DNA from: Escherichia coli
GTDB lineage: Bacteria; Pseudomonadota; Gammaproteobacteria; Enterobacterales; Enterobacteriaceae
Strand: one strand, 5' to 3'
DNA: 31,100 nt
NCBI RefSeq assembly: GCF_003334765.1
Contig: NZ_QOWT01000040.1
In this document: positions 1 through 7,613 of the stretch, in pieces
Numbering within the stretch: position 1 is the stretch's first letter
Layout: the number at the start of each line of letters is the position of its first letter
The notes under the pieces: model-generated
What the model was told of the DNA's origin: nothing
Database searches by the model: none
Seen by the model: only the letters and a program-made list of their open reading frames with translations
Made by a program: the position numbers and the translations under genes

Positions 1-74
1 AAATCGGCTCAAACATGAAGAAATGAAATGACTGAGTCAGCCGAGAAGTATTTCCCCGCTTATTCGCACCTTCC
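1..74 (+). mobile_element. IS5 right-end fragment; the element body lies left of the window
   Basis: Bases 1-74 match, from memory, the last ~75 bp of IS5. The reverse complement of 59-74 is the terminal inverted repeat GGAAGGTGCGAATAAG. The next 4 bp, TTAG (75-78), fit the IS5 YTAR target/duplication site. Not verified by alignment. Confidence 0.85.
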
Positions 75-130
75 TTAGTCGCGCGCTGAATGGAATTTAC
101 GCCTCTTTGGAAACATCTGATTGGGGAATA

Positions 131-487
131 ATGAAGTTATTTGAGGATTTAGCATATAGAAATTATAAGTCAAGCGCATGGTCCGCTATGCTAAGAAATA
201 AATTAAGATTGAGAATGGACGATAAGCTTGATGAAAAGATAATTTCAATAATTAATGAGAAAGAGCTTGGTAAAAAGTTTTATAGAATTGACAGAGATCG
301 TTTGTTATCGTTAATGTTAGATTATAATATTGATATACCAATTAATCTTAATAATATAATTTACCTTTGTAATTATTTTTTCATAAAATCTACGGAGCTT
401 CAGGATATAGCCCCTGCTTTAATAATGAAAAAGCTTACAGATGCTGATGAAAAATTCAATAAAAATACTATTTTAGCATCTAAATAA
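131..487 (+). CDS. hypothetical protein, 118 aa from ATG 131 (TTG 107 gives the 126-aa ORF)
   Basis: Very AT-rich ORF with no motif I recognise. The same frame stays open leftwards across the IS5 junction to a stop at 29-31, so this may be the 3' part of a gene split by IS5. A hairpin follows the stop codon. Confidence 0.45.
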   Translation: MKLFEDLAYRNYKSSAWSAMLRNKLRLRMDDKLDEKIISIINEKELGKKFYRIDRDRLLSLMLDYNIDIPINLNNIIYLCNYFFIKSTELQDIAPALIMKKLTDADEKFNKNTILASK

Positions 488-504
488 TAACTATCTCCGG
501 CTAT

Positions 505-534
505 TAAGTAGGCCTTGTATTTTAGGCCTACTTA
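505..534. repeat. 11-bp inverted repeat hairpin after the small ORF; possible terminator without a U-tract
   Basis: TAAGTAGGCCT (505-515) and AGGCCTACTTA (524-534) are perfect reverse complements with an 8-nt loop. Neither strand has a clear T-run after the hairpin. Confidence 0.4.
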
Positions 535-866
535 AAAAGTTTCATTATGTGAAGTGATGATGATAGCAAATCTGATATCTTTATGGTTGGATGCGAGAAA
601 ATATTTTTATCCCGACACAACAACTGGTAATGATAGAAAATTTAAACCCAAAAATGCTACAGTAGCCTCAGCTCACAAACGGAGTATAAAGTGGCGGTTA
701 CTCTTTAGTGGGAATACTGTAGATAGTTGATAAACTGGGCTGGATTTTCTTTTCTAACCGAAGGGAAGAAAAGCAAGGGGAACCCAAAGAAACAAGCGCA
801 GCGGCTTCGTAGGGTTAGCCCTTGCTTCTTTTATAATTGGCATTATTCATTCAAGAACAATAGGAT

Positions 867-886
867 CTTCGCTTGTACAAGCGAAG
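867..886. repeat. perfect 20-bp palindrome CTTCGCTTGT|ACAAGCGAAG
   Basis: The reverse complement of 867-876 equals 877-886 exactly. It lies in an ORF-poor AT-rich stretch downstream of the ParB-like genes. Half-site fragments ACAAGCG (792-798) and CTTCG (805-809) occur about 70 bp upstream. Confidence 0.8.
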
Positions 887-1539
887 CTATAATAAAAAAT
901 CAATTAATTATTTTAAAAGTATTAAGCAAGAGCCTATTGACATTCGTAAAATAAAAGTTATTTTTAATGTATGCCATAAATAAAAAGTTTTATGTCATAT
1001 GTATCCTGCACTATGTGCAGTTAATGTGCCACTTGTCCCATATATGGGAATATTGGAAAGGTTACTTTGTTTTGAAGTAGCCTTTCGTCCTTCAATATTC
1101 ACGATTACTTATTGCTATTACCAAGTCCAGTCGAATCGAAGAACATCTTTTATCTGAAACGACTCCTAATACCAGGTTGAAGCCACAATATCTCTCGCAT
1201 AAGTAGACCAAAGAAAAATTATGATATTAACTATGTGATTTTTTTTAGTGTTAAGTTGAATAATTATATACTGGAGAGTTTTCTGTACACTACCAATTGC
1301 TGGTTCATCTGTTCTGCCGCTGATGTTTCTGACTAATCTCCCGGTGACACAGAACTGTCCCTCTCTACCAGCCTTTATTCGACTCAATGTCCGGCTGCTG
1401 ATACGCAGTTATCCCTTCGTATCAATGACTGACTCTTAAACGCAATGCTTTGGTTGCTGGCGTATCTGACAGCTTCTTCGGCGTGAAGGTCGTTGTGTAA
1501 GTATACTTCTTGGTTTATTTAGGCTATATAAAACCATGA

Positions 1540-2436
1540 CTATGACTGGCTGTTTTCAGTAAGAGTCTTATCATCCAAAGAATTTATTCTAGAAATTCTT
1601 TTTAACTCATTAAGATAATCAACCTCGTTTTCTAAGAACCAATGAAGAACTTTAGAGTTGCCAAGTAATTTATTAATATATGACTGGATTATAACGAATT
1701 TCAACATATCTGAACCATACTCGGTTTGAAGTTTTTTCGTTTCTTCCGAAGTTGTTGCCATTTCTTGTTCCAGACGAAGTATGGTTTTTTTTATGTCCTT
1801 TTTATAGGGAGTGTTTTTCCCTTTATTTACTATCATCGATGACGGTGTTGCATCCAAGATGCTCATTGCAAATTTTTTACTATAATTATCAAAATTAATC
1901 ATTGTACCGACTGCTTCAATTTGACGAATTGGCTTCATTTTCCTCAAAACGTCAAATGTAGCCTTAGGTATAGGTTTATCAGAAAGTTTCGCAATTACAC
2001 TTGGATCTATGCCGTTCATCACATTAGCTTTATCTTTTATGGCATCAACAGATATGCCCAAAGCAGCACTAAGTTTTTCAATTGATACTTTTGCCAGAGA
2101 CTTAATTATCATTCTATGTTCTTCAACTACATTTATATGATTCACTTGTTTGTTAGGAGTGAAAGCATCATCTATGCTCGAAAGTATACATGGAGCTTTT
2201 TCTATATCTAAGTCTTTTAAAGCCTCAACCCTTAAATGGCCATCAAGTATCTTAGTGACATCTTTATCTTTGTCATAGAATACTATTATTGGTTCAATAA
2301 TACCCAAGCTTTCGATAGAGGTAACTATTTGATGATATTTATGGCTTCGCTTTACGTTTTCTAATAATTCCTTAGATGGAATTAACTTATTAGTTTCCAG
2401 GTAAATAAAATTTTTGCCAAAACGTATCTGAATCAT
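1540..2436 (-). CDS. ParB/Srx N-terminal domain protein B (298 aa), third gene of the triad
   Basis: ParB-like motifs: SIESLGIIEPIIV (compare GLLQPIxV), ILDGHLRVEAL (a D-G-x-x-R patch at residues 65-69) and an HTH-like IEKLSAALGISVDAIKDKANVM. Its ATG shares ATGA (2433-2436) with the upstream stop. An AGAGGT Shine-Dalgarno sits 6 nt upstream. Confidence 0.8.
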   Translation of the reverse strand: MIQIRFGKNFIYLETNKLIPSKELLENVKRSHKYHQIVTSIESLGIIEPIIVFYDKDKDVTKILDGHLRVEALKDLDIEKAPCILSSIDDAFTPNKQVNHINVVEEHRMIIKSLAKVSIEKLSAALGISVDAIKDKANVMNGIDPSVIAKLSDKPIPKATFDVLRKMKPIRQIEAVGTMINFDNYSKKFAMSILDATPSSMIVNKGKNTPYKKDIKKTILRLEQEMATTSEETKKLQTEYGSDMLKFVIIQSYINKLLGNSKVLHWFLENEVDYLNELKRISRINSLDDKTLTENSQS

Positions 2437-3329
2437 TTTGATACCTCTTTGTTTACTGGGTTTAATATCTGAGATGGTAGTTCTGAAAGATTCTCTTGTT
2501 CAAGTATATTTTGAAAGCTTTTATTCATCATTATGATGTTAAAAATCTCATTTATTATTAGTAGATTGGTTTTTATAAATTTCGAGTTGTTATAAACAGA
2601 TTTATGTTCAGCGATACTATTTTCATAAAGCTCAATCAACTCCTCTGCAGTCATCCTTTTTGATGGTTTGTGATAATAAAATCCGGCTGCTTTTGCACCT
2701 TTATTCCCAACTGTTCTTTGATTTAGAATGTATTTTATCTTTATAATGTCCCGACTTTTTATTAATTTTTTATCATATGCTTCGGTAAGAATATCTTGTG
2801 CTTCCTCAGTTTCACATCTTGCAAATTGCACTGCGAGATACAGAGGCAAATTACCCCGTTCGACTGCTGAGAGAAGTTTATGCTCTCCCTTATCAAGAAG
2901 CATATTAATACTGCTCACCCAGTTCGATGAATATCCAGTAATCTCACTTATTTCGGAGTCTGAAAGTCCTCTGATTTTCATGTCTTTAATCACCTGTAAT
3001 AACTCATTAGAACGTGGTCTTCTCCTTGCAATGTTTTCAACTAAACTCATAACGTAAGCATCTTCTTCTGATACATCTCTTATAATTGCTGGAATAATAG
3101 TTTCACCTAATGCAACAAGAGCCTCTATTCTCCCTTGACCACAAATTAAAGCATATTTGAAATCGTCTTCATCAATAGCTCTTACGCTTATAGGCTTGCT
3201 TAATCCTCTTTTTTTTATGCTTTCCTTTATTTCTTCATGCACTACCTTATTTCTTGTTCGTGGGTTAAGAAATTTTATTTTTGCAATCTCAATTTGAATT
3301 ATTGGGAATTCATTTTTTTCAGGCAGCAT
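2433..3329 (-). CDS. ParB-like N-terminal + HTH domain protein A (298 aa), second gene of the triad
   Basis: Motifs: FLNPRTRN, GLSKPISVRAI and ICGQGRIEAL (a reduced GxxR arginine patch at residues 64-67). SLVENIARRRPRSNELLQVIKDMKIRGLSDSEISEITGYSSNWVSSINMLL parallels the ParB ENLQR...HTH segment. The C-terminal ~120 aa is unrecognised. A GAGGGA Shine-Dalgarno sits 5 nt before ATG 3327-3329. The start overlaps the recombinase stop by 11 nt. Confidence 0.8.
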   Translation of the reverse strand: MLPEKNEFPIIQIEIAKIKFLNPRTRNKVVHEEIKESIKKRGLSKPISVRAIDEDDFKYALICGQGRIEALVALGETIIPAIIRDVSEEDAYVMSLVENIARRRPRSNELLQVIKDMKIRGLSDSEISEITGYSSNWVSSINMLLDKGEHKLLSAVERGNLPLYLAVQFARCETEEAQDILTEAYDKKLIKSRDIIKIKYILNQRTVGNKGAKAAGFYYHKPSKRMTAEELIELYENSIAEHKSVYNNSKFIKTNLLIINEIFNIIMMNKSFQNILEQENLSELPSQILNPVNKEVSK

Positions 3330-4875
3330 ATAGTTCCCTCACTTTCATGCGAGTAATAATTTGTAGAAATTTATCAAGATTATCAAATCTATAGAGATCT
3401 AACCGAATGTTGTTTGTTTCCATCATACACATTTTACTATATTCGTTTTCAATCTTTGGTATGATATAAAAATCAAGAGGTGAAATATTTTGTGAATTCA
3501 TTCGTATAACAATTGTTATGTCTGCTTTCTGTGAGTTATCAAACCGGACTTTCCATCTAAGTTTACCTGATTTCATATGTATGCATTTAGTAACAAGGAC
3601 GGAAATTAAAAACTCATCATTGATGTAAAGCATTGGGTAATATTTATACTCGTCTATATGACAGTTACTTTTTAATATTTCGCCCTTAAAATCCTCAATT
3701 ATCTCTGAGTAAAATGATCTTAGTGCTTCATTTATTTGGAGATAGCTGTAATCATGTTCTGGCTTATAACCAATCAAAGTATATGCTCTTAAAAGACCAC
3801 CAAATCGGGTTCTATAAACAGAAGATGAAGGGCCTGTATCATCTTCATCAATGATAAAGCCTGATAGTTTTCCATTAGATTCTAATTTTTCTTTTAGCTT
3901 TTCTAATAGATCTTCATTAGTCAAATGAATGGATCGGAGCTGAATTATTTCTTGAGCTTTATTATATTTTTTCTTTGAAATAATTGGTTTATATGCCTTG
4001 TCACATCTAATCCATTCATGTTTGGGGTTTTTTACAAGCTTACTTTTTAGTTTAGATGAGGTTTTGTTATATATGTTGTTTCCAATATATTTTTCATTTG
4101 TCAAAATTTGATGTATTTTTGCACGAGTCCATGATGTTCCATTTTCTGCAGGTATGCTCTGTTCATTTAATCTCTCAGCAATAATGAATTCTGGGACGTT
4201 ACTATCTATAAAGAGATCATAGATTCTATTTACAATTTTTATTTCATTTTTTGGTCCCGGAATTAATATTACCCTATCTGTTTGAATACTCTTTCTTTTG
4301 CGGAAATTCAATATTTCTTTAGCTATGCCATTTTCGTCTACTAAAAGACGTCTCAGCCCATAACCAGCCATACCGCCTTGATGATAACCAAGCTTTATTA
4401 AATTTACTTGCCCTATAAATACCTTTTCAGATAGATTCCTGCTGTGATATGCAGCACTTGATCTTTTTATATTCAGTATAACAGAGGACTCTAAAGGGAA
4501 ATCTTTAGTGGGTATAGGTTCGGAACAATATATAAGATCTACACCATTTCTTTCAAATAGAAAGGAATAATATGCAGCTTCATCACTATTTTGAAAACGA
4601 CCAAAACGGCTCACATCATAAAATAATACAGCCTGTATATCTATTTTCTTTTGTTCTACATCGCTAAGTAACTGCTGCAAAGAATGCCTGCCTACGATAC
4701 TGACTCCGCTCTTACCTGCATCATCGTAGGTATAAGCGATTTCCATATTGTTCTTTTCAGCATAATCTTTGATATATTCAGACTGATTATGTAAAGAATA
4801 TTGCTGATGGTCGGTAGACATCCTCAAGTACTGTGCGACCCTAACTCTATGATTTTTTTCATTTCCGCTAGCCAT
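3319..4875 (-). CDS. large serine recombinase family protein, 518 aa from ATG 4875 (ORF opens at TTG 4881)
   Basis: Resolvase catalytic-domain motifs: YLRMSTDHQ (the nucleophile Ser context), DAGKSG and VSRFGR. Recombinase-domain motif: WTRAKIHQILTNEKYIGN. No CxxC pair occurs anywhere in the protein, so no zinc ribbon is apparent. A GAGG sits 8 nt before ATG 4873-4875. Confidence 0.85.
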   Translation of the reverse strand: MASGNEKNHRVRVAQYLRMSTDHQQYSLHNQSEYIKDYAEKNNMEIAYTYDDAGKSGVSIVGRHSLQQLLSDVEQKKIDIQAVLFYDVSRFGRFQNSDEAAYYSFLFERNGVDLIYCSEPIPTKDFPLESSVILNIKRSSAAYHSRNLSEKVFIGQVNLIKLGYHQGGMAGYGLRRLLVDENGIAKEILNFRKRKSIQTDRVILIPGPKNEIKIVNRIYDLFIDSNVPEFIIAERLNEQSIPAENGTSWTRAKIHQILTNEKYIGNNIYNKTSSKLKSKLVKNPKHEWIRCDKAYKPIISKKKYNKAQEIIQLRSIHLTNEDLLEKLKEKLESNGKLSGFIIDEDDTGPSSSVYRTRFGGLLRAYTLIGYKPEHDYSYLQINEALRSFYSEIIEDFKGEILKSNCHIDEYKYYPMLYINDEFLISVLVTKCIHMKSGKLRWKVRFDNSQKADITIVIRMNSQNISPLDFYIIPKIENEYSKMCMMETNNIRLDLYRFDNLDKFLQIITRMKVRELYAA

Positions 4876-5157
4876 GCACAAAACCTCATGGATGATTCAA
4901 TACAATGTAGAGGATAAAATTGATCAAATTTTAACCGAATTCAACTGTTTTATCATTGATTAGAGCGAATTTGGTAGTTCTTCGAGGTGTATGATAATCG
5001 AGAAGAGATGTGAATTATTTAGCTGATATGACCGACAGCTTTCGTTATGTGGCCTCAAGGTACCCATTTGTAAATGGCTATGCTTAGTCCACATAGGTTA
5101 ATGGTGTGATCATTAATTCTTCAAATAAATCAAGATAGTTAACCCATCATGGAAGAG

Positions 5158-6387
5158 TTATGCGGCAATAACTTTGTATTTTTGAGACGAAACATAGTCA
5201 CTCCACCATTGCATGAGAACCACACGTTCTGTGAGATACTCTGCACGATTGTAGGCTGCAATTATTTCATCTTTTTTCGAGTGGGCAAGGGCGGCTTCTA
5301 AGACATCAGTTCTAAACTTGCCACACTCCTCAGCCGCCGTTCTAGCGATTGATCGCATACCATGAGCTACAAGCTCACCTCCGAAGCCCATACGGATTAT
5401 AGCCGCATTAGCTGTTTGTTCATGCATGTGATTGAGTGGAGCTTTGATACTGGGAAAAACCCACTCTCTATGCCCGCTGATGGCTTTCATTGAATCCAAG
5501 ACTCGCAAAGATTCTTTGCTCAGTGGAACTTTGTGAGGCTTCTTCATTTTCATAAACTCCGCCGGGATGTTCCACATGCTGGTTTCTATATCAATATCTG
5601 ACCATCTTGTGCGAACAGCTTCACCAGGGCGAACCCATGTGAGAAGTTGCCACTCAATCAGTAGCCTTGTTTCTAAACGGATAGAAGCATTGTTTAGAGC
5701 AACCAGGAAGCGGGGGAGTTCGGAAGGGGGTAATGCTGGCATATTCTGTTTTTTTGGCTTGCTGAACCGTTGCCCCAGGTTGTCAGCCGGATTGAATTCT
5801 ATGAGTTCTTCTGTTGCTGCATAGCGGAAAATTTCATTCAGGCGGGATATGACGCGGCGAAGTGTTTCAAGGACACCTCGTTTTTCTATGGGGTCTAAAT
5901 GCTGTTTAAGCATTTTAGGGCGAATCTCCTTAATGGGGGTATCACCCAACGTTGGAAAGATATTTCTCTCTAGGCTTCGCCAGATGTCGTTAGCATGATC
6001 CTGGGAGATGCCTGACGTTTTGACTTTCTCATCAAGCCACTTCTTGGCTACTGCTTGAAATGTATGTTCCGTTGCATCCTTAAGGGCATTGGCTTTGTGG
6101 GTGTTATGAATTTGTGGGTCTATACCATTTGCAAGCAACGACAAGTACTCATCACGTAAAGCTCGTGCCTTCGCAAGTGTAAGGTGAGGATAGGTTCCTA
6201 AGCTCACCTTAGTTCGCTTTTTGGTCACAGGCACTGCATATCTGAAATACCAATTTTTCTTTCCTCCCTTCGCTAAGGGGGCGATTCGCAGGAGCAAACC
6301 ATCGCCGTCAAAAAGGTTAACCTCTTTCTCGGCAGGTTTGGTGCTTTTGATTTCAGTGTCAGTGAGCTTCTTAGCGATTTTTGCCAT
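5158..6387 (-). CDS. int: P4/IntA-family tyrosine integrase, 409 aa from ATG 6387
   Basis: The N-terminus MAKIAKKLTDTEIKSTKP...FDGDGLLLRI is typical of P4-type integrases. Catalytic-region motifs: TWVRPGEA, HGMRSIART, LAH and AAYNRAEY. It lies directly next to the 3' end of ssrA. The 457-aa ORF extension to 6531 is rejected because it runs through the ssrA terminator hairpin, and a GAGGG Shine-Dalgarno precedes ATG 6385-6387. Confidence 0.9.
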   Translation of the reverse strand: MAKIAKKLTDTEIKSTKPAEKEVNLFDGDGLLLRIAPLAKGGKKNWYFRYAVPVTKKRTKVSLGTYPHLTLAKARALRDEYLSLLANGIDPQIHNTHKANALKDATEHTFQAVAKKWLDEKVKTSGISQDHANDIWRSLERNIFPTLGDTPIKEIRPKMLKQHLDPIEKRGVLETLRRVISRLNEIFRYAATEELIEFNPADNLGQRFSKPKKQNMPALPPSELPRFLVALNNASIRLETRLLIEWQLLTWVRPGEAVRTRWSDIDIETSMWNIPAEFMKMKKPHKVPLSKESLRVLDSMKAISGHREWVFPSIKAPLNHMHEQTANAAIIRMGFGGELVAHGMRSIARTAAEECGKFRTDVLEAALAHSKKDEIIAAYNRAEYLTERVVLMQWWSDYVSSQKYKVIAA

Positions 6388-6483
6388 GTTTGGGACCCTC
6401 ATGTTTTGGACCCTTTGTGTTGGGTCCCAAAAAGGGTGCCATAACGAGTAGATTCTAGCAATTCTCGGTAGACTACTATAGAC

Positions 6484-6520
6484 GTAAAAAAGCCCGCAAG
6501 GCTGGTTCCATGCGGGCTTG
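6484..6520 (-). terminator. rho-independent terminator downstream of ssrA, on the island side
   Basis: 9-bp stem AAGCCCGCA (6490-6498) / TGCGGGCTT (6511-6519). On the minus strand the hairpin is followed by TTTTTT. Confidence 0.7.
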
Positions 6521-6553
6521 ATAGACTTCACTGAACTTCAATATATCAAAAAT

Positions 6554-6916
6554 TGGTGGAGCTGGCGGGAGTTGAACCCGCGTCCGAAATTCCTACATCC
6601 TCGGTACTACATGCTTAGTCAGTCTTTACATTCGCTTGCCAGCTGCGGACGGACACGCCACTAACAAACTAGCCTGATTAAGTTTTAACGCTTCAACCCC
6701 AGGCAGGGCTTCCACGCGATCTCTTTTGGGTTTGACCTCTCTTGATCCCCGTCCTAAGAGCGGAGGCTAGGGAGAGAGGGCTCTAAGCAGGTTATTAAGC
6801 TGCTAAAGCGTAGTTTTCGTCGTTTGCGACTATTTTTTGCGGCTTTTTACGAGGCCAACCGCCCCTCGGCATGCACCTTGGGTTTCGCAAATCCCGTCGA
6901 ATCCAGAATCAGCCCC
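6554..6916 (-). ncRNA. ssrA: tmRNA (SsrA), 363 nt
   Basis: The reverse complement reads GGGGCTGATTCTGGATTCGACGGGATTTGCG ... GGGTTCAACTCCCGCCAGCTCCACCA. The tag reading frame GCAAACGACGAAAACTACGCTTTAGCAGCTTAA (ANDENYALAA) is at 6795-6827. Confidence 0.97.
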
Positions 6917-6930
6917 AATGTGTAAAGGTA

Positions 6931-6960
6931 AGTATACCAGATTTATGAGCGCCATGACCA
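6931..6960 (-). promoter_or_regulatory. putative ssrA sigma70 promoter
   Basis: On the minus strand: TGGTCA (6955-6960), 18 nt, TATACT (6931-6936). The predicted start falls about 7 nt before the mature GGGGCTG 5' end, consistent with a short processed leader. Confidence 0.5.
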
Positions 6961-7130
6961 GCCTCAATGGCGTTATCGTTAAAGATTTAGCACCCATGTA
7001 GCCTGATTTTTATTCGATTAAGCAATGGGATGGCAACATTTGTGTCGGATGTGATAGCCAATAAGATGTTCATTCGCGCCGCCGGAGAGGGAGGCGCGGT
7101 GAGGAACTGGTCAATAATTGGAGTGCAGGT

Positions 7131-7613
7131 TTAACGGTGGGCGTTTTTCATGATACGTGCTTTATCCACCTGCCATTCGCGCTCTTTGATATCTGAACGT
7201 TTATCGTGCTGTTTCTTACCTTTGGCGACGCCGATTTTCACTTTGCACCAGGCATTTTTCCAGTACAGGGAGAGCGCCACTACGGTATAGCCTTCTCGAT
7301 TGACGCGACCGTACAATGAGTCCAGTTCGCGCTGGTTGAGAAGTAACTTGCGGGTACGGGTAGGATCGCACACCACATGCGTGGAGGCCACGGCCATTGG
7401 CGTGATGTTAGCGCCAAACAGAAATGCCTCTCCGTCACGCAGAAGGACGTAGCTGTCGCTGATATTGGCTTTTCCTGCGCGCAGGGATTTAACTTCCCAG
7501 CCTTGCAGGGCAAGTCCCGCTTCGAACTCTTCTTCGATAAAGTATTCGTGACGGGCGCGCTTGTTAAGCGCGATGGTCGCTGAACCAGGTTTATGTGCTT
7601 TTTTCTTCGTCAT
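7131..7613 (-). CDS. smpB: SsrA-binding protein SmpB
   Basis: 160-aa ORF beginning [33 protein letters not shown]..., recognised as SmpB. Adjacent to ssrA as in K-12. Confidence 0.97.

Follow-up and report, generated by a model that had tools for sequence, protein, structure and literature searches.

What does the DNA between positions 488 and 1539 do, and to which neighbours does it belong? In the window, the whole 31,100-nucleotide stretch of Escherichia coli DNA analysed here (contig NZ_QOWT01000040.1), this segment adjoins a triad of genes for two ParB/RepB-like proteins and a large serine recombinase, and it is poor in open reading frames and packed with palindromes. A sequence-only reading had proposed that the palindromes are parS-like or att sites acting in cis for the triad, or parts of a structured RNA. 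Our analysis indicates that the palindrome-rich gap is conserved non-coding DNA of a mobilizable E. coli genomic island and most likely includes its origin of transfer (oriT). In its fuller form, in which an integrative mobilizable element (IME) at ssrA has 488-1539 as its non-coding backbone, with the putative oriT and not triad sites, this is a reading we hold to be probable. The stretch is a mosaic of a cargo tail (488-738), a two-hairpin module (739-835), a palindrome block (836-1242) and a scrap of an IS3-family element (1358-1489). Segments 488-738 and 1243-1357 are lineage-specific and show no functional sign.

All the palindromes and stem-loops described from the letters alone were recovered at the coordinates given for them: the perfect 20-bp palindrome CTTCGCTTGTACAAGCGAAG (867-886), the stem-loop with arms 766-779 and 819-832 (86% complementary) in which AACCC (781-785) pairs with GGGTT (812-816), CTGCAC-TAT-GTGCAG (1006-1020) and CCCATATATGGG (1037-1048), the last lying within a palindrome that is in fact 14 bp long (1036-1049). 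Fragments of the 20-bp palindrome, ACAAGCG (792-798) and CTTCG (805-809), are present as described. Additional hairpins were found at 504-515/524-535 and 1056-1067/1075-1086, together with a small one at 749-773. When 488-1539 was shuffled 1000 times with dinucleotide composition preserved, a perfect palindrome with 10-nt half-sites arose in 0.3% of the shuffles and a 12-bp perfect stem in none (0/1000), while the five perfect-stem hairpins of at least 7 bp (0.8 expected) were reached by 1.5%. Folding stability exceeded that of shuffled controls at 745-835 (RNA z = -3.4) and at 965-1095 (RNA z = -5.7 on the + strand and -3.6 on the - strand). A structured RNA remains a candidate for 965-1095 only.

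The description of the region as ORF-poor is correct. ORFs longer than 60 aa all start with TTG (727-954 on the + strand and 1166-1387 on the - strand), and an exact look-up of the ORFs showed that only the 57-aa ATG ORF at 557-730, which does exist, has ever been called by gene callers, and then in E. coli only. Across variants, ORFs of at least 9 aa on both strands of 836-1300 are broken by frameshifts or stops in loci L020/L024 or L037, with two exceptions. A 10-aa ORF, MSYVSCTMCS (992-1024), was rejected as its three apparently synonymous changes are equally explained by RNA pairing and its frame is lost in L037, and a 22-aa ORF (1112-1180) was rejected as it is conserved at the DNA level only. 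Rfam 15 gave nothing in 488-1539 at the gathering score and only chance-level matches (E > 2.5) at a relaxed threshold, and a DNA similarity search against plasmids and phages gave no match for the region. A copy of the ssrA 3' end, sought in 1-5200 as an att repeat, yielded only words of chance length. It is scarcely credible that everything but the IS fragment is mere decayed filler or debris of pseudogenes with accidental palindromes: the IS3 remnant is truly debris, the two lineage-specific segments lack signs of function and the 57-aa ORF has no homologue beyond E. coli, but palindromes and hairpins exceed chance in the shuffles, 739-835 and 836-1100 are kept across genera and island types with compensatory changes, and this conservation and covariation refute the reading for 739-1100, leaving in place the earlier view of non-coding DNA with structured cis elements.

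The assignment of the palindromes to the adjacent triad did not survive a check of homologous triads, beside which they are not conserved. Downstream of triad homologues in Cronobacter (89% identity), Pantoea (72%) and Salmonella (59%), a different gene follows at 90-280 nt, and nothing there resembles 747-1539. The same is true of two triads, in Enterobacter and Kluyvera, that are 96-97% identical: another gene follows, with no similarity to 747-1539. Conversely, the hairpin module and palindrome block occur without an adjoining triad in E. coli islands at other sites (for example L020-L027 and L124), and this DNA also lacks an adjoining triad in L037 and L040. In L037 and L124 the block continues directly into the stop codon of the integrase gene, and the triad is therefore a separable insert. 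The triad is present in 655 of 5426 E. coli genomes; diverged hairpin copies (60-90% identity) occur in about 180 E. coli genomes, and those that were fetched (L020-L027) lie in other islands. BL21-type (B) strains retain the triad and have lost 747-1195, including the module, to IS1.

We therefore consider it highly improbable that the two ParB/RepB-like proteins load at the palindromes as at parS-like sites, or that the large serine recombinase uses them as att sites. Physical proximity speaks for such sites (the last ParB-like gene ends at 1540), palindromes of 12-20 bp are a suitable kind of object, and about 460 genomes of E. coli and close genera have block and triad together. Against them, the block is absent beside triads at 59-89% identity as well as the two at 96-97%, is present together with its palindromes in islands without an adjoining triad, and was lost from triad-bearing BL21-type strains; an IS3 remnant and 250 nt of lineage-specific DNA lie between block and triad; and the 20-bp palindrome is degenerate in L037/L040. 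The co-occurrence with a ParB gene expected of ParB loading sites is not observed across triads at 59-97% identity, nor are the palindromes conserved with recombinase homologues as serine-recombinase att sites would be. No word of at least 9 nt, direct or inverted, is common to the two triad flanks. With parS of ParABS or RepABC systems the locus shares a short palindrome near ParB/RepB-family genes, but there is no ParA gene here and the palindromes do not co-occur with ParB-like genes across relatives; we also know of no resemblance between them and TGTTNCACGTGAAACA or the RepB-type parS consensus. A PADLOC search on the triad returned only a weak ParB-domain match to a methyltransferase model. 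For the annotation of 488-1539, a parS or att label is tempting but wrong.

At one end of the mosaic, segment 488-738 preserves the tail of a RelA/SpoT-domain cargo gene that has been disrupted: ORF 107-487 is the 3' part of that gene and clusters with 301-aa RelA/SpoT-domain proteins. A perfect hairpin with a 12-bp stem (504-535, arms 504-515/524-535) lies 17 nt past the stop codon of this ORF; it looks terminator-like with no clear U tract (fold z = -4.8), and it is part of the variable cargo, not of the conserved block. Only 78 of 613 matching genomes contain 488-746; E. coli ML35 and 300709 match the window exactly throughout 488-1539. Variable defence-type cargo lies between the mob promoter and the hairpin module, 488-738 being the tail of one such cargo; the types found are type I restriction-modification, NACHT plus RelA/SpoT, DUF4209 and ABC three-component systems. 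Of the variable anti-phage cargo found at ssrA and ygbA, much is carried by this island family. The PIME island family (bioRxiv 10.64898/2026.01.12.698999) was considered and set aside as a different element, with trbJ, trbL and repA. At the other end, an internal IS3-family remnant (1358-1489, + strand) is about 72% identical to ISSen4, has a local GC content of 48% against about 30% in its surroundings and corresponds at 1355-1466 to a PGAP pseudogene. This dead fragment probably marks the junction of triad and backbone. The remaining 1490-1539 (- strand) is a 3' flank that moves with the last ParB-like gene and includes a 10-bp palindrome, AAGTATACTT (1499-1508); the L009/L010 relatives diverge exactly at 1491/1492, 48 nt past the ParB stop codon.

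The module at 739-835 (+ strand) unites the long stem-loop noted earlier, then described as 68 nt, with a second hairpin. Comparison of loci with differing flanks in E. coli, Enterobacter, Phytobacter, Leclercia and metagenomes places the limits of homology at about 739-748 and about 835, and the module is found in about 12% of complete E. coli genomes. Hairpin hp1 (749-773, + strand) lies directly 5' of the long stem-loop; its stem pairs 749-755 with 767-773, and further in CC (758-759) pairs with GG (763-764) to enclose a GAA triloop; the loop motif is AACCGAAGGG. Hairpin hp2 (774-824, + strand) has three stems (774-779/819-824, 781-785/812-816 and 789-793/804-808) and a variable apical loop. 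In an alignment of 34 module sequences, 94% of cells were paired, against 35-60% when the partner was slid. Both sides had changed in 12 of 25 pairs, with 63 cells in total, a level reached by none of 500 shuffles. In hp1, pairs 30-36 and 31-35 of alignment A7 change from CG to UA in 10 and 4 sequences, respectively. A strand test counting G-T versus A-C combinations favoured the + strand for hp2 (16 versus 4) but not for hp1 (8 versus 14), and these counts are not decisive. The loop and bulge sequences AACCGAAGGG, GTTAGC and GAAGC/GCTTC are conserved across relaxases that are only 45-60% identical.

In all 41 loci that show both, the module lies upstream of a mobC-like gene followed by a gene for a PF03432 relaxase, and its orientation relative to them never varies. 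The distance from module to mobC is 104-117 nt in 12 loci without cargo and 0.8-6.6 kb where cargo lies between; in the window's own relaxase class it is 4.5-6.6 kb. A -35 box of the mob promoter, TTGACA, can be read on the - strand about 25-30 nt from hp1. As the window starts in an IS5 end, the mob operon falls outside it, and mobC and the relaxase gene are present in genomes identical over the region. The mobC-like protein is 42% identical to MobC of pGNB2 (E = 9e-22). The relaxase shows 38% identity to the relaxase domain of the MOBP-typed IncQ-3 MobA and 46% to a relaxase from a Pseudomonas plasmid, with weak NCBIfam matches to TraI_MobP and MobB; a PDB sequence search with it returned nothing.

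On the basis of these sequence comparisons, the module most likely represents the putative oriT of the island. By MobC and relaxase, the IncQ-3 plasmids are the closest plasmid relatives examined for which an oriT has been described. The predicted nick region, TTAGCCCTTGCT (815-826, + strand), agrees at 10 of 12 positions with TTACACCTTGCT, the conserved 12-bp core of the IncQ-3 oriT, which is itself described as putative, by homology (PMC7557826). It is the single core match in the window, and each island locus has one exact copy, always inside hp2. Upstream of mobC in pGNB2, we read CCCCC-GACCGAAGGGAGC-GGGGG followed by GGTGAGAACC...GGTTACACCTTGCT, as well as the hp1 motif in the form ACCGAAGGGA; the Pseudomonas plasmid counterpart upstream of mobC reads AACTCGGC-GGA-GCCGAGTTAGCCCTGGCT, with the core-like TTAGCCCTGGCT. 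This homology between plasmid and island oriTs rests on motifs read by eye, and a covariance model trained on island copies failed to recover their plasmid counterparts (E > 3). The position, the 12-bp core, a hairpin 5' of the core on the same strand and a cognate MobC and relaxase, as in IncQ-3-like/MOBP oriTs, are all found here. According to a recent survey, the usual place of an oriT is the first intergenic region upstream of the relaxase, and oriT and relaxase are less than 5 kb apart in more than 99% of elements (bioRxiv 10.64898/2026.01.13.699239). The spacing of 4.5-6.6 kb in the window's relaxase class is at or beyond that figure and counts against an oriT.

By analogy with IncP and IncQ systems, hp1 and the three-part hp2 on the + strand would present TTAGCCCTTGCT to the island MobC and MOBP-type relaxase, which would nick the + strand in or just 3' of this sequence, and the hairpin 5' of the nick would serve recognition and termination. 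The DNA to the right (palindrome block, triad and integrase) would then enter the recipient first and the mob operon last. With this predicted direction of entry, the triad would therefore fall in the leading half of the element.

We consider it very unlikely that the module is a mere bidirectional intrinsic terminator or insulator, shielding the mob promoter from cargo transcription, with the oriT elsewhere. On the - strand, hp2 is directly followed by UUUU(C/U) in all copies (U4-6); on the + strand, a U-rich stretch follows hp2 and a scan calls a terminator-like site at 809-825; and cargo genes on the - strand of L022 and L026 end within about 15 nt of the module, hp2 being preceded by a gene end in some loci only. 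However, a terminator does not need loops and bulges conserved across relaxases as diverged as those above, and the A run, which would give the U tract, covaries with the T run as the stem of hp1. Moreover, plasmids have these motifs upstream of mobC, one of them being a named oriT core, and the module is the only conserved non-coding element that goes with the mob operon in every clade. A module could fill both roles at once.

The conserved block at 836-1242 contains the 20-bp palindrome, a sigma-70-like promoter and three to four hairpins. The palindrome (867-886) is an inverted pair of CTTCGCTTG, of which a third, degenerate copy lies in the hp2 loop (793-801). The ygbA-site islands L020/L024 retain it apart from a T-to-C substitution at its centre. 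L037/L040 have a degenerate form, and there the motif turns up again in a tandem repeat of 105 nt; L021, L022 and L025-L027 lack the palindrome. Palindrome and half-site CTTCGCTTG are probably binding sites for an island protein. The promoter-like site (937-964, + strand) reads TTGACA-16-TATTTT and points right. Its hexamers and spacing are kept in three lineages while the spacer diverges (-10 TATTTA in L003/L020 and TATTAA in L037); the number of promoter-like sites in the region, five against 4.7 expected, is not above chance. The hairpin core that follows (965-1094, + strand) comprises an inverted repeat (970-999) and hairpins H-a (1006-1020), H-b (1036-1049) and H-c (1056-1086). It is the best-conserved part of the block among lineages 72-82% identical and holds no conserved ORF; H-a, H-b and H-c each retain pairing through changes, and H-c includes G-T pairing specific to the + strand. 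The less conserved extension at 1095-1242 is common only with the ygbA-site islands, where it ends at the island-chromosome junction (L020 6505-6529). No remnant of an integrase 3' end was found in 1095-1400.

In triad-less relatives the block has the putative oriT on one side and the 3' end of the integrase gene on the other. It is missing from the islands L021, L022 and L025-L027 of this family and is therefore not essential for transfer. Separately, TATCCTGC occurs at 1002-1009 in the core block, apart from the module, with TCTCCTGC in L020; other family members lack it. The IncP-type ATCCTG was considered as the nick site of the family and rejected: it occurs only in the core of some lineages and is absent near the hairpin or mobC in L020-L027.

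Our preferred reading of the block, a tentative one, is that it encodes a candidate small RNA of about 120 nt, which would be transcribed from the + strand. An alternative, which we regard as quite unlikely, is that the core (937-1094) acts as single-stranded DNA, its hairpins forming an ssi-type priming signal (like those of phage G4 or Frpo) from which the recipient would synthesise the complementary strand. A + strand nick near 826 would make the block the start of the leading region, and 937-1094 would fall within the first 150-270 nt to enter. Folding of the hairpins is better on the + strand, and H-c retains a G-T pair, which the opposite strand would present as A-C. The C-GAA-G mini-hairpin motif of hp1, a known and unusually stable DNA hairpin, was also counted in favour of such a signal. 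A precedent exists in the F plasmid, for which single-strand promoters and ParB-like genes in the leading region are established (PMC13370423). On the other hand, the -35 and -10 hexamers have the canonical form for double-stranded DNA, where a hairpin is not required; the 970-999 inverted repeat, the would-be pairing partner of the -10, is not conserved in L037/L040; and a primer so near the 5' end would copy very little DNA. The absence of the block from several family islands and of similarity to plasmid or phage DNA also speaks against a priming signal.

A broader proposal is that 937-1094, with its promoter-like site and three hairpins, represents a new class of conserved leading-region element, with the triad as an establishment module; this we think unlikely. 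The core sits a short way in from the end of the transferred strand that is predicted to enter first and, in relatives without the triad, adjoins the integrase stop codon. In one form of the proposal, an unclassified small RNA convergent with the integrase gene would control integration or excision; in the other, a single-strand DNA signal would prime complementary-strand synthesis on entry. If true, the triad would lie in the leading half with the transferred strand as template, and would be comparable, as an establishment module, to the ParB-like HerB/YfjB encoded by the F plasmid. The candidate + strand small RNA remains the reading that we prefer for the block.

The putative oriT at 739-835 can be set beside known systems. 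With the IncQ-3 oriT (pGNB2, pBRST7.6 and the qnrS2 plasmid group) it shares a location upstream of mobC and the relaxase gene, whose transcription leads away from it, related proteins (42% identity for MobC and 38% for the relaxase domain) and a small hairpin with a ACCGAAGGGA loop, after which comes a larger hairpin with a 3' arm that continues into the core. In contrast to the IncQ-3 plasmids, the present element is chromosomal and integrative, its relaxase lacks the primase fusion of the IncQ-3 relaxase, its module is AT-rich with only the motifs recognisably similar, and kilobases of cargo may separate module and mob promoter.

The oriTs of IncP (RP4/R751) and IncQ-1 (RSF1010/R1162), which belong with relaxases of the same PF03432/MOBP kind, have the same architecture, with a hairpin repeat and then a short conserved single-strand motif beside the mob promoter. 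The island module differs from them in that its hairpin lacks the YATCCTG|Y nick motif and in that it has two adjacent hairpins in place of one repeat.

The third comparison is with oriT regions predicted for IMEs, which likewise include conserved intergenic sequence upstream of an E. coli island relaxase (bioRxiv 10.64898/2026.01.13.699239). According to that study, chromosomal mobilizable islands outnumber ICEs in E. coli, the oriTs of chromosomal IMEs were almost all previously undescribed, and 52 new oriT families were defined by a method that uses the first intergenic region beside the relaxase. Such a method would therefore miss copies displaced by 4.5-6.6 kb, as in the window's lineage. 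A candidate oriT of 90 nt with a plasmid relative makes it testable whether the island is mobilizable, with which helper plasmids, and which islands without their relaxase can still be transferred. The oriT of a mobilizable island is a known kind of element, of which the module at 739-835 is most likely an additional candidate member.

The window covers the E. coli chromosome surrounding ssrA, with Rfam matches to tmRNA (6554-6916, minus strand), the pheA leader and RyfD. Left of ssrA lie, all on the minus strand, the genes for a P4-type integrase (5158-6531), a large serine recombinase (3319-4881) and two ParB/RepB-like proteins (2433-3329 and 1540-2436), the last three forming the triad; a palindrome-rich gap (488-1539) is found to the left of the ParB/RepB-like genes. 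The sequence-only reading had located several palindromes in this gap, all of them at the correct positions, and was also right that no convincing ORF lies there. It had overlooked three hairpins: one with a 12-bp stem (504-535), one at 1056-1086, and a small one (749-773) adjoining the long stem-loop. Among 1000 dinucleotide-preserving shuffles, a perfect 20-bp palindrome arises in 0.3% and a 12-bp stem in none (0/1000), and five perfect-stem hairpins are observed versus 0.8 expected.

Strains 300709 and ML35 are among 78 complete E. coli genomes that carry the gap unchanged; about 475 of 613 matching E. coli genomes have only window 747-1539 in common, at 96.6% identity. The left boundary, at about 734-748, is the same in Enterobacter, Phytobacter, Leclercia, Kluyvera and a MAG, with unrelated DNA further left, and window 488-746 is therefore part of one cargo variant. 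Of a 301-aa RelA/SpoT-domain protein, the window retains the C-terminal part as ORF 107-487; in relatives, the gene comes after a NACHT-domain gene, and this remnant and its neighbor in relatives look like a disrupted two-gene defense-like cargo. Window 1-72 departs from relatives that are identical elsewhere; its terminal CTTATTCGCACCTTCC is taken as an IS5 inverted repeat, and 1-72 as an IS5 end. On the other side of the gap, 1358-1489 (48% GC) has 72% identity to ISSen4 and bears the PGAP label IS3-family pseudogene. In two relatives, L009 and L010, similarity to the window stops exactly at 1491/1492, where the 3′ end of an integrase pseudogene takes over. In these loci (L009 6895-7700 and L010; Enterobacter vonholyi, Kluyvera sp.) the pseudogene is of P4 type, has the same orientation and begins 48 nt past the ParB stop, so that the triad there has integrase sequence on either side.

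The hairpin module at 739-835, comprising a small hairpin (hp1, 749-773) and a long one (hp2, 774-824), is quite probably the oriT of the island, an integrative mobilizable element at ssrA. Where the mob operon is visible, it encodes a 127-145-aa protein without a Pfam match (mobC-like) and a PF03432 relaxase, and the module lies upstream of it in a single orientation. A metagenome scan by relaxase alignment yielded 80 loci, in 30 of which the module was detected by profile and covariance model. Module and mobC were both seen in 41 loci, with consistent orientation in 41/41. The distance from the module to the mobC start is 104-117 nt in 12 loci and 0.8-6.6 kb where cargo, including DUF4209, ABC three-component system, type I RM and NACHT genes, is inserted. 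In loci without cargo, a TTGACA on the minus strand, about 25-30 nt from the module, is read as the mob promoter. In the relaxase class of the window, ATCTGGATT ends the mobC side and GGCTGGATTTTC starts the hairpin side, which suggests that both sides were formerly adjacent.

The cargo slot between mob promoter and putative oriT (e.g., L001 3800-8250, L020 3984-5792, L025 1196-3782) carries interchangeable defense-type genes: NACHT plus RelA/SpoT, DUF4928, ankyrin, DUF4209, ABC three-component systems and type I RM. The L001 cargo has the 7-nt word CTGGATT at either edge. A second slot, beyond the other side of the module, contains retron Ec48, an AAA ATPase and a nuclease. Between mob promoter and mobC start, an inverted repeat, AAGCATATTCCTTATGCTT, likely an operator, is conserved in some clades (L021/L025/L022, e.g., L021 5920-5945); the window lacks it.

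In an alignment of 34 distinct module copies, fitted to the covariance model and hence biased toward structure, 94% of cells are paired versus 35-60% with the partner slid, and both partners have changed in 12 of the 25 pairs, a number that 0/500 shuffles reached. Plain MAFFT alignments show the same compensations (AACCC/GGGTT to AACTC/GAGTT to AACTT/AAGTT; CTTTTC/GAAAAG to CTTTAC/GTAAAG) and, in L099, replacement of a whole stem with compensated pairing. Loops and bulges (AACCGAAGGG, GTTAGC, GAAGC/GCTTC) are kept at the sequence level. With U4-6 following it on the minus strand and a position after a gene end in two loci, hp2 may serve as a transcription terminator, possibly besides its proposed oriT role, although termination leaves both the conserved loops and the homology to plasmids unexplained.

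The 20-bp palindrome consists of two inverted copies of CTTCGCTTG, a third, degenerate copy of which lies in the hp2 loop. In L037, a 105-nt tandem repeat (260-505; 2.4 copies, 83% matches) separates the hairpin module from the core of the following block, and every unit bears GCTTCGCTTGCA, the half-site of the window's palindrome, in an iteron-like arrangement. Since the palindrome is missing from several members of the island family, it falls outside the minimal oriT.

The adjoining block (836-1242) retains promoter-like hexamers and hairpins H-a (1006-1020), H-b (1036-1049) and H-c (1056-1086) across three lineages at 72-82% identity, the hairpins belonging to a core that extends to about 1094. 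TTGACA-16-TATTTT/TATTTA/TATTAA is retained in the three lineages despite a diverged spacer. Between lineages, CTGCAC/GTGCAG of H-a becomes CTGTAC/GTACAG, and the outer U-A pair of H-b and a U-G pair of H-c become C-G. The RNA fold z of the core is −5.7 on the plus strand versus −3.6 on the other. No ORF survives across block variants, and no match to the block was found in Rfam, plasmids or phages. The peptide of a 10-codon ORF (MSYVSCTMCS, 992-1024) is unaffected by three nucleotide changes between the window lineage and L020/L024; the ORF lacks a Shine-Dalgarno sequence, overlaps H-a and loses its frame in L037. The core is unclassified. Our best guess, a tentative one, is a small plus-strand RNA; a single-strand priming signal seems unlikely, and protein sites or terminators take the remaining probability. 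Window 1002-1009, 3 nt past an inverted repeat (970-999) in the core, reads TATCCTGC, which we take to fit the IncP/Ti-type nick consensus. L037 retains this motif, L040 has AATCCTGT at this site, L020/L024 have TCTCCTGC, and other members of the family lack it; either chance or a second oriT of helper type could account for it.

The proposal that the palindromes are sites for the triad proteins is contradicted, as this DNA is missing beside triad homologues and present without the triad, and the triad flanks have no repeat in common. No similarity to 747-1539 was found downstream of the triads of Cronobacter (89% identity), Pantoea (72%) or Salmonella (59%), where a different gene follows after 90-280 nt. 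A relative of 746-1242 (82% identity) ends islands adjoining ygbA with no triad beside it, and the hairpin alone (77-93% identity) occurs in further islands without an adjoining triad. In L037, L040 and 11 E. coli genomes, hairpin, repeat region and block core reach right up to the stop codon of the gene for an integrase with 85% identity to that of the window; in the window lineage, triad and IS scrap have thus been inserted between block and integrase. BL21-type strains retain the triad and have lost 747-1195 to IS1. In L004 (BL21(DE3)-derived Nico21; 6249-7344), the island is cut short by IS1 at window position 1196 and thereby joined to glaH/csiD, and laboratory B strains therefore retain integrase and triad without the oriT-like module and mob genes. 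The triad (1540-5157) is a separable module that 655 of 5426 E. coli genomes carry; an integrase adjoins it in every relative examined. Its distal ParB/RepB-like protein has 1373 protein matches in total, including plasmid-borne homologues in Alpha-, Beta- and Gammaproteobacteria, and PADLOC defense-system models gave nothing for the triad proteins beyond one weak ParB-domain match.

The closest plasmid relaxases include those of IncQ-3 qnrS2 plasmids (pGNB2; typed IncQ2/MOBP) at 38% identity, and a Pseudomonas plasmid relaxase reaches 46%; the small island protein shares 42% identity with MobC of pGNB2 (E = 9e-22). Upstream of mobC, pGNB2 carries CCCCC-GACCGAAGGGAGC-GGGGG ... GGTGAGAACC-AAGCGAAGCGTA-GGTTACACCTTGCT, and the Pseudomonas counterpart is GACCGAATCGAGG-AACTCGGC-GGA-GCCGAGTTAGCCCTGGCT. 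A putative oriT core, TTACACCTTGCT, is common to all 29 IncQ-3 plasmids (PMC7557826). In the window, TTAGCCCTTGCT occurs once, at 815-826, and hp2 of every island locus contains a single exact copy. The covariance model built from islands did not reach the plasmid copies, and the plasmid link thus consists of common motifs and common position. Nick placement and transfer direction are established for the oriTs of IncP and IncQ. By analogy with these, the plus strand would be nicked within or directly 3′ of the motif at 815-826, and DNA to its right would enter the recipient first. If this orientation is right, the triad is in the island's leading half and the transferred strand is its template. 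Elements of the oriT kind are known; the putative one at 739-835, from a common chromosomal island family, is undescribed or has at most been predicted by computation.
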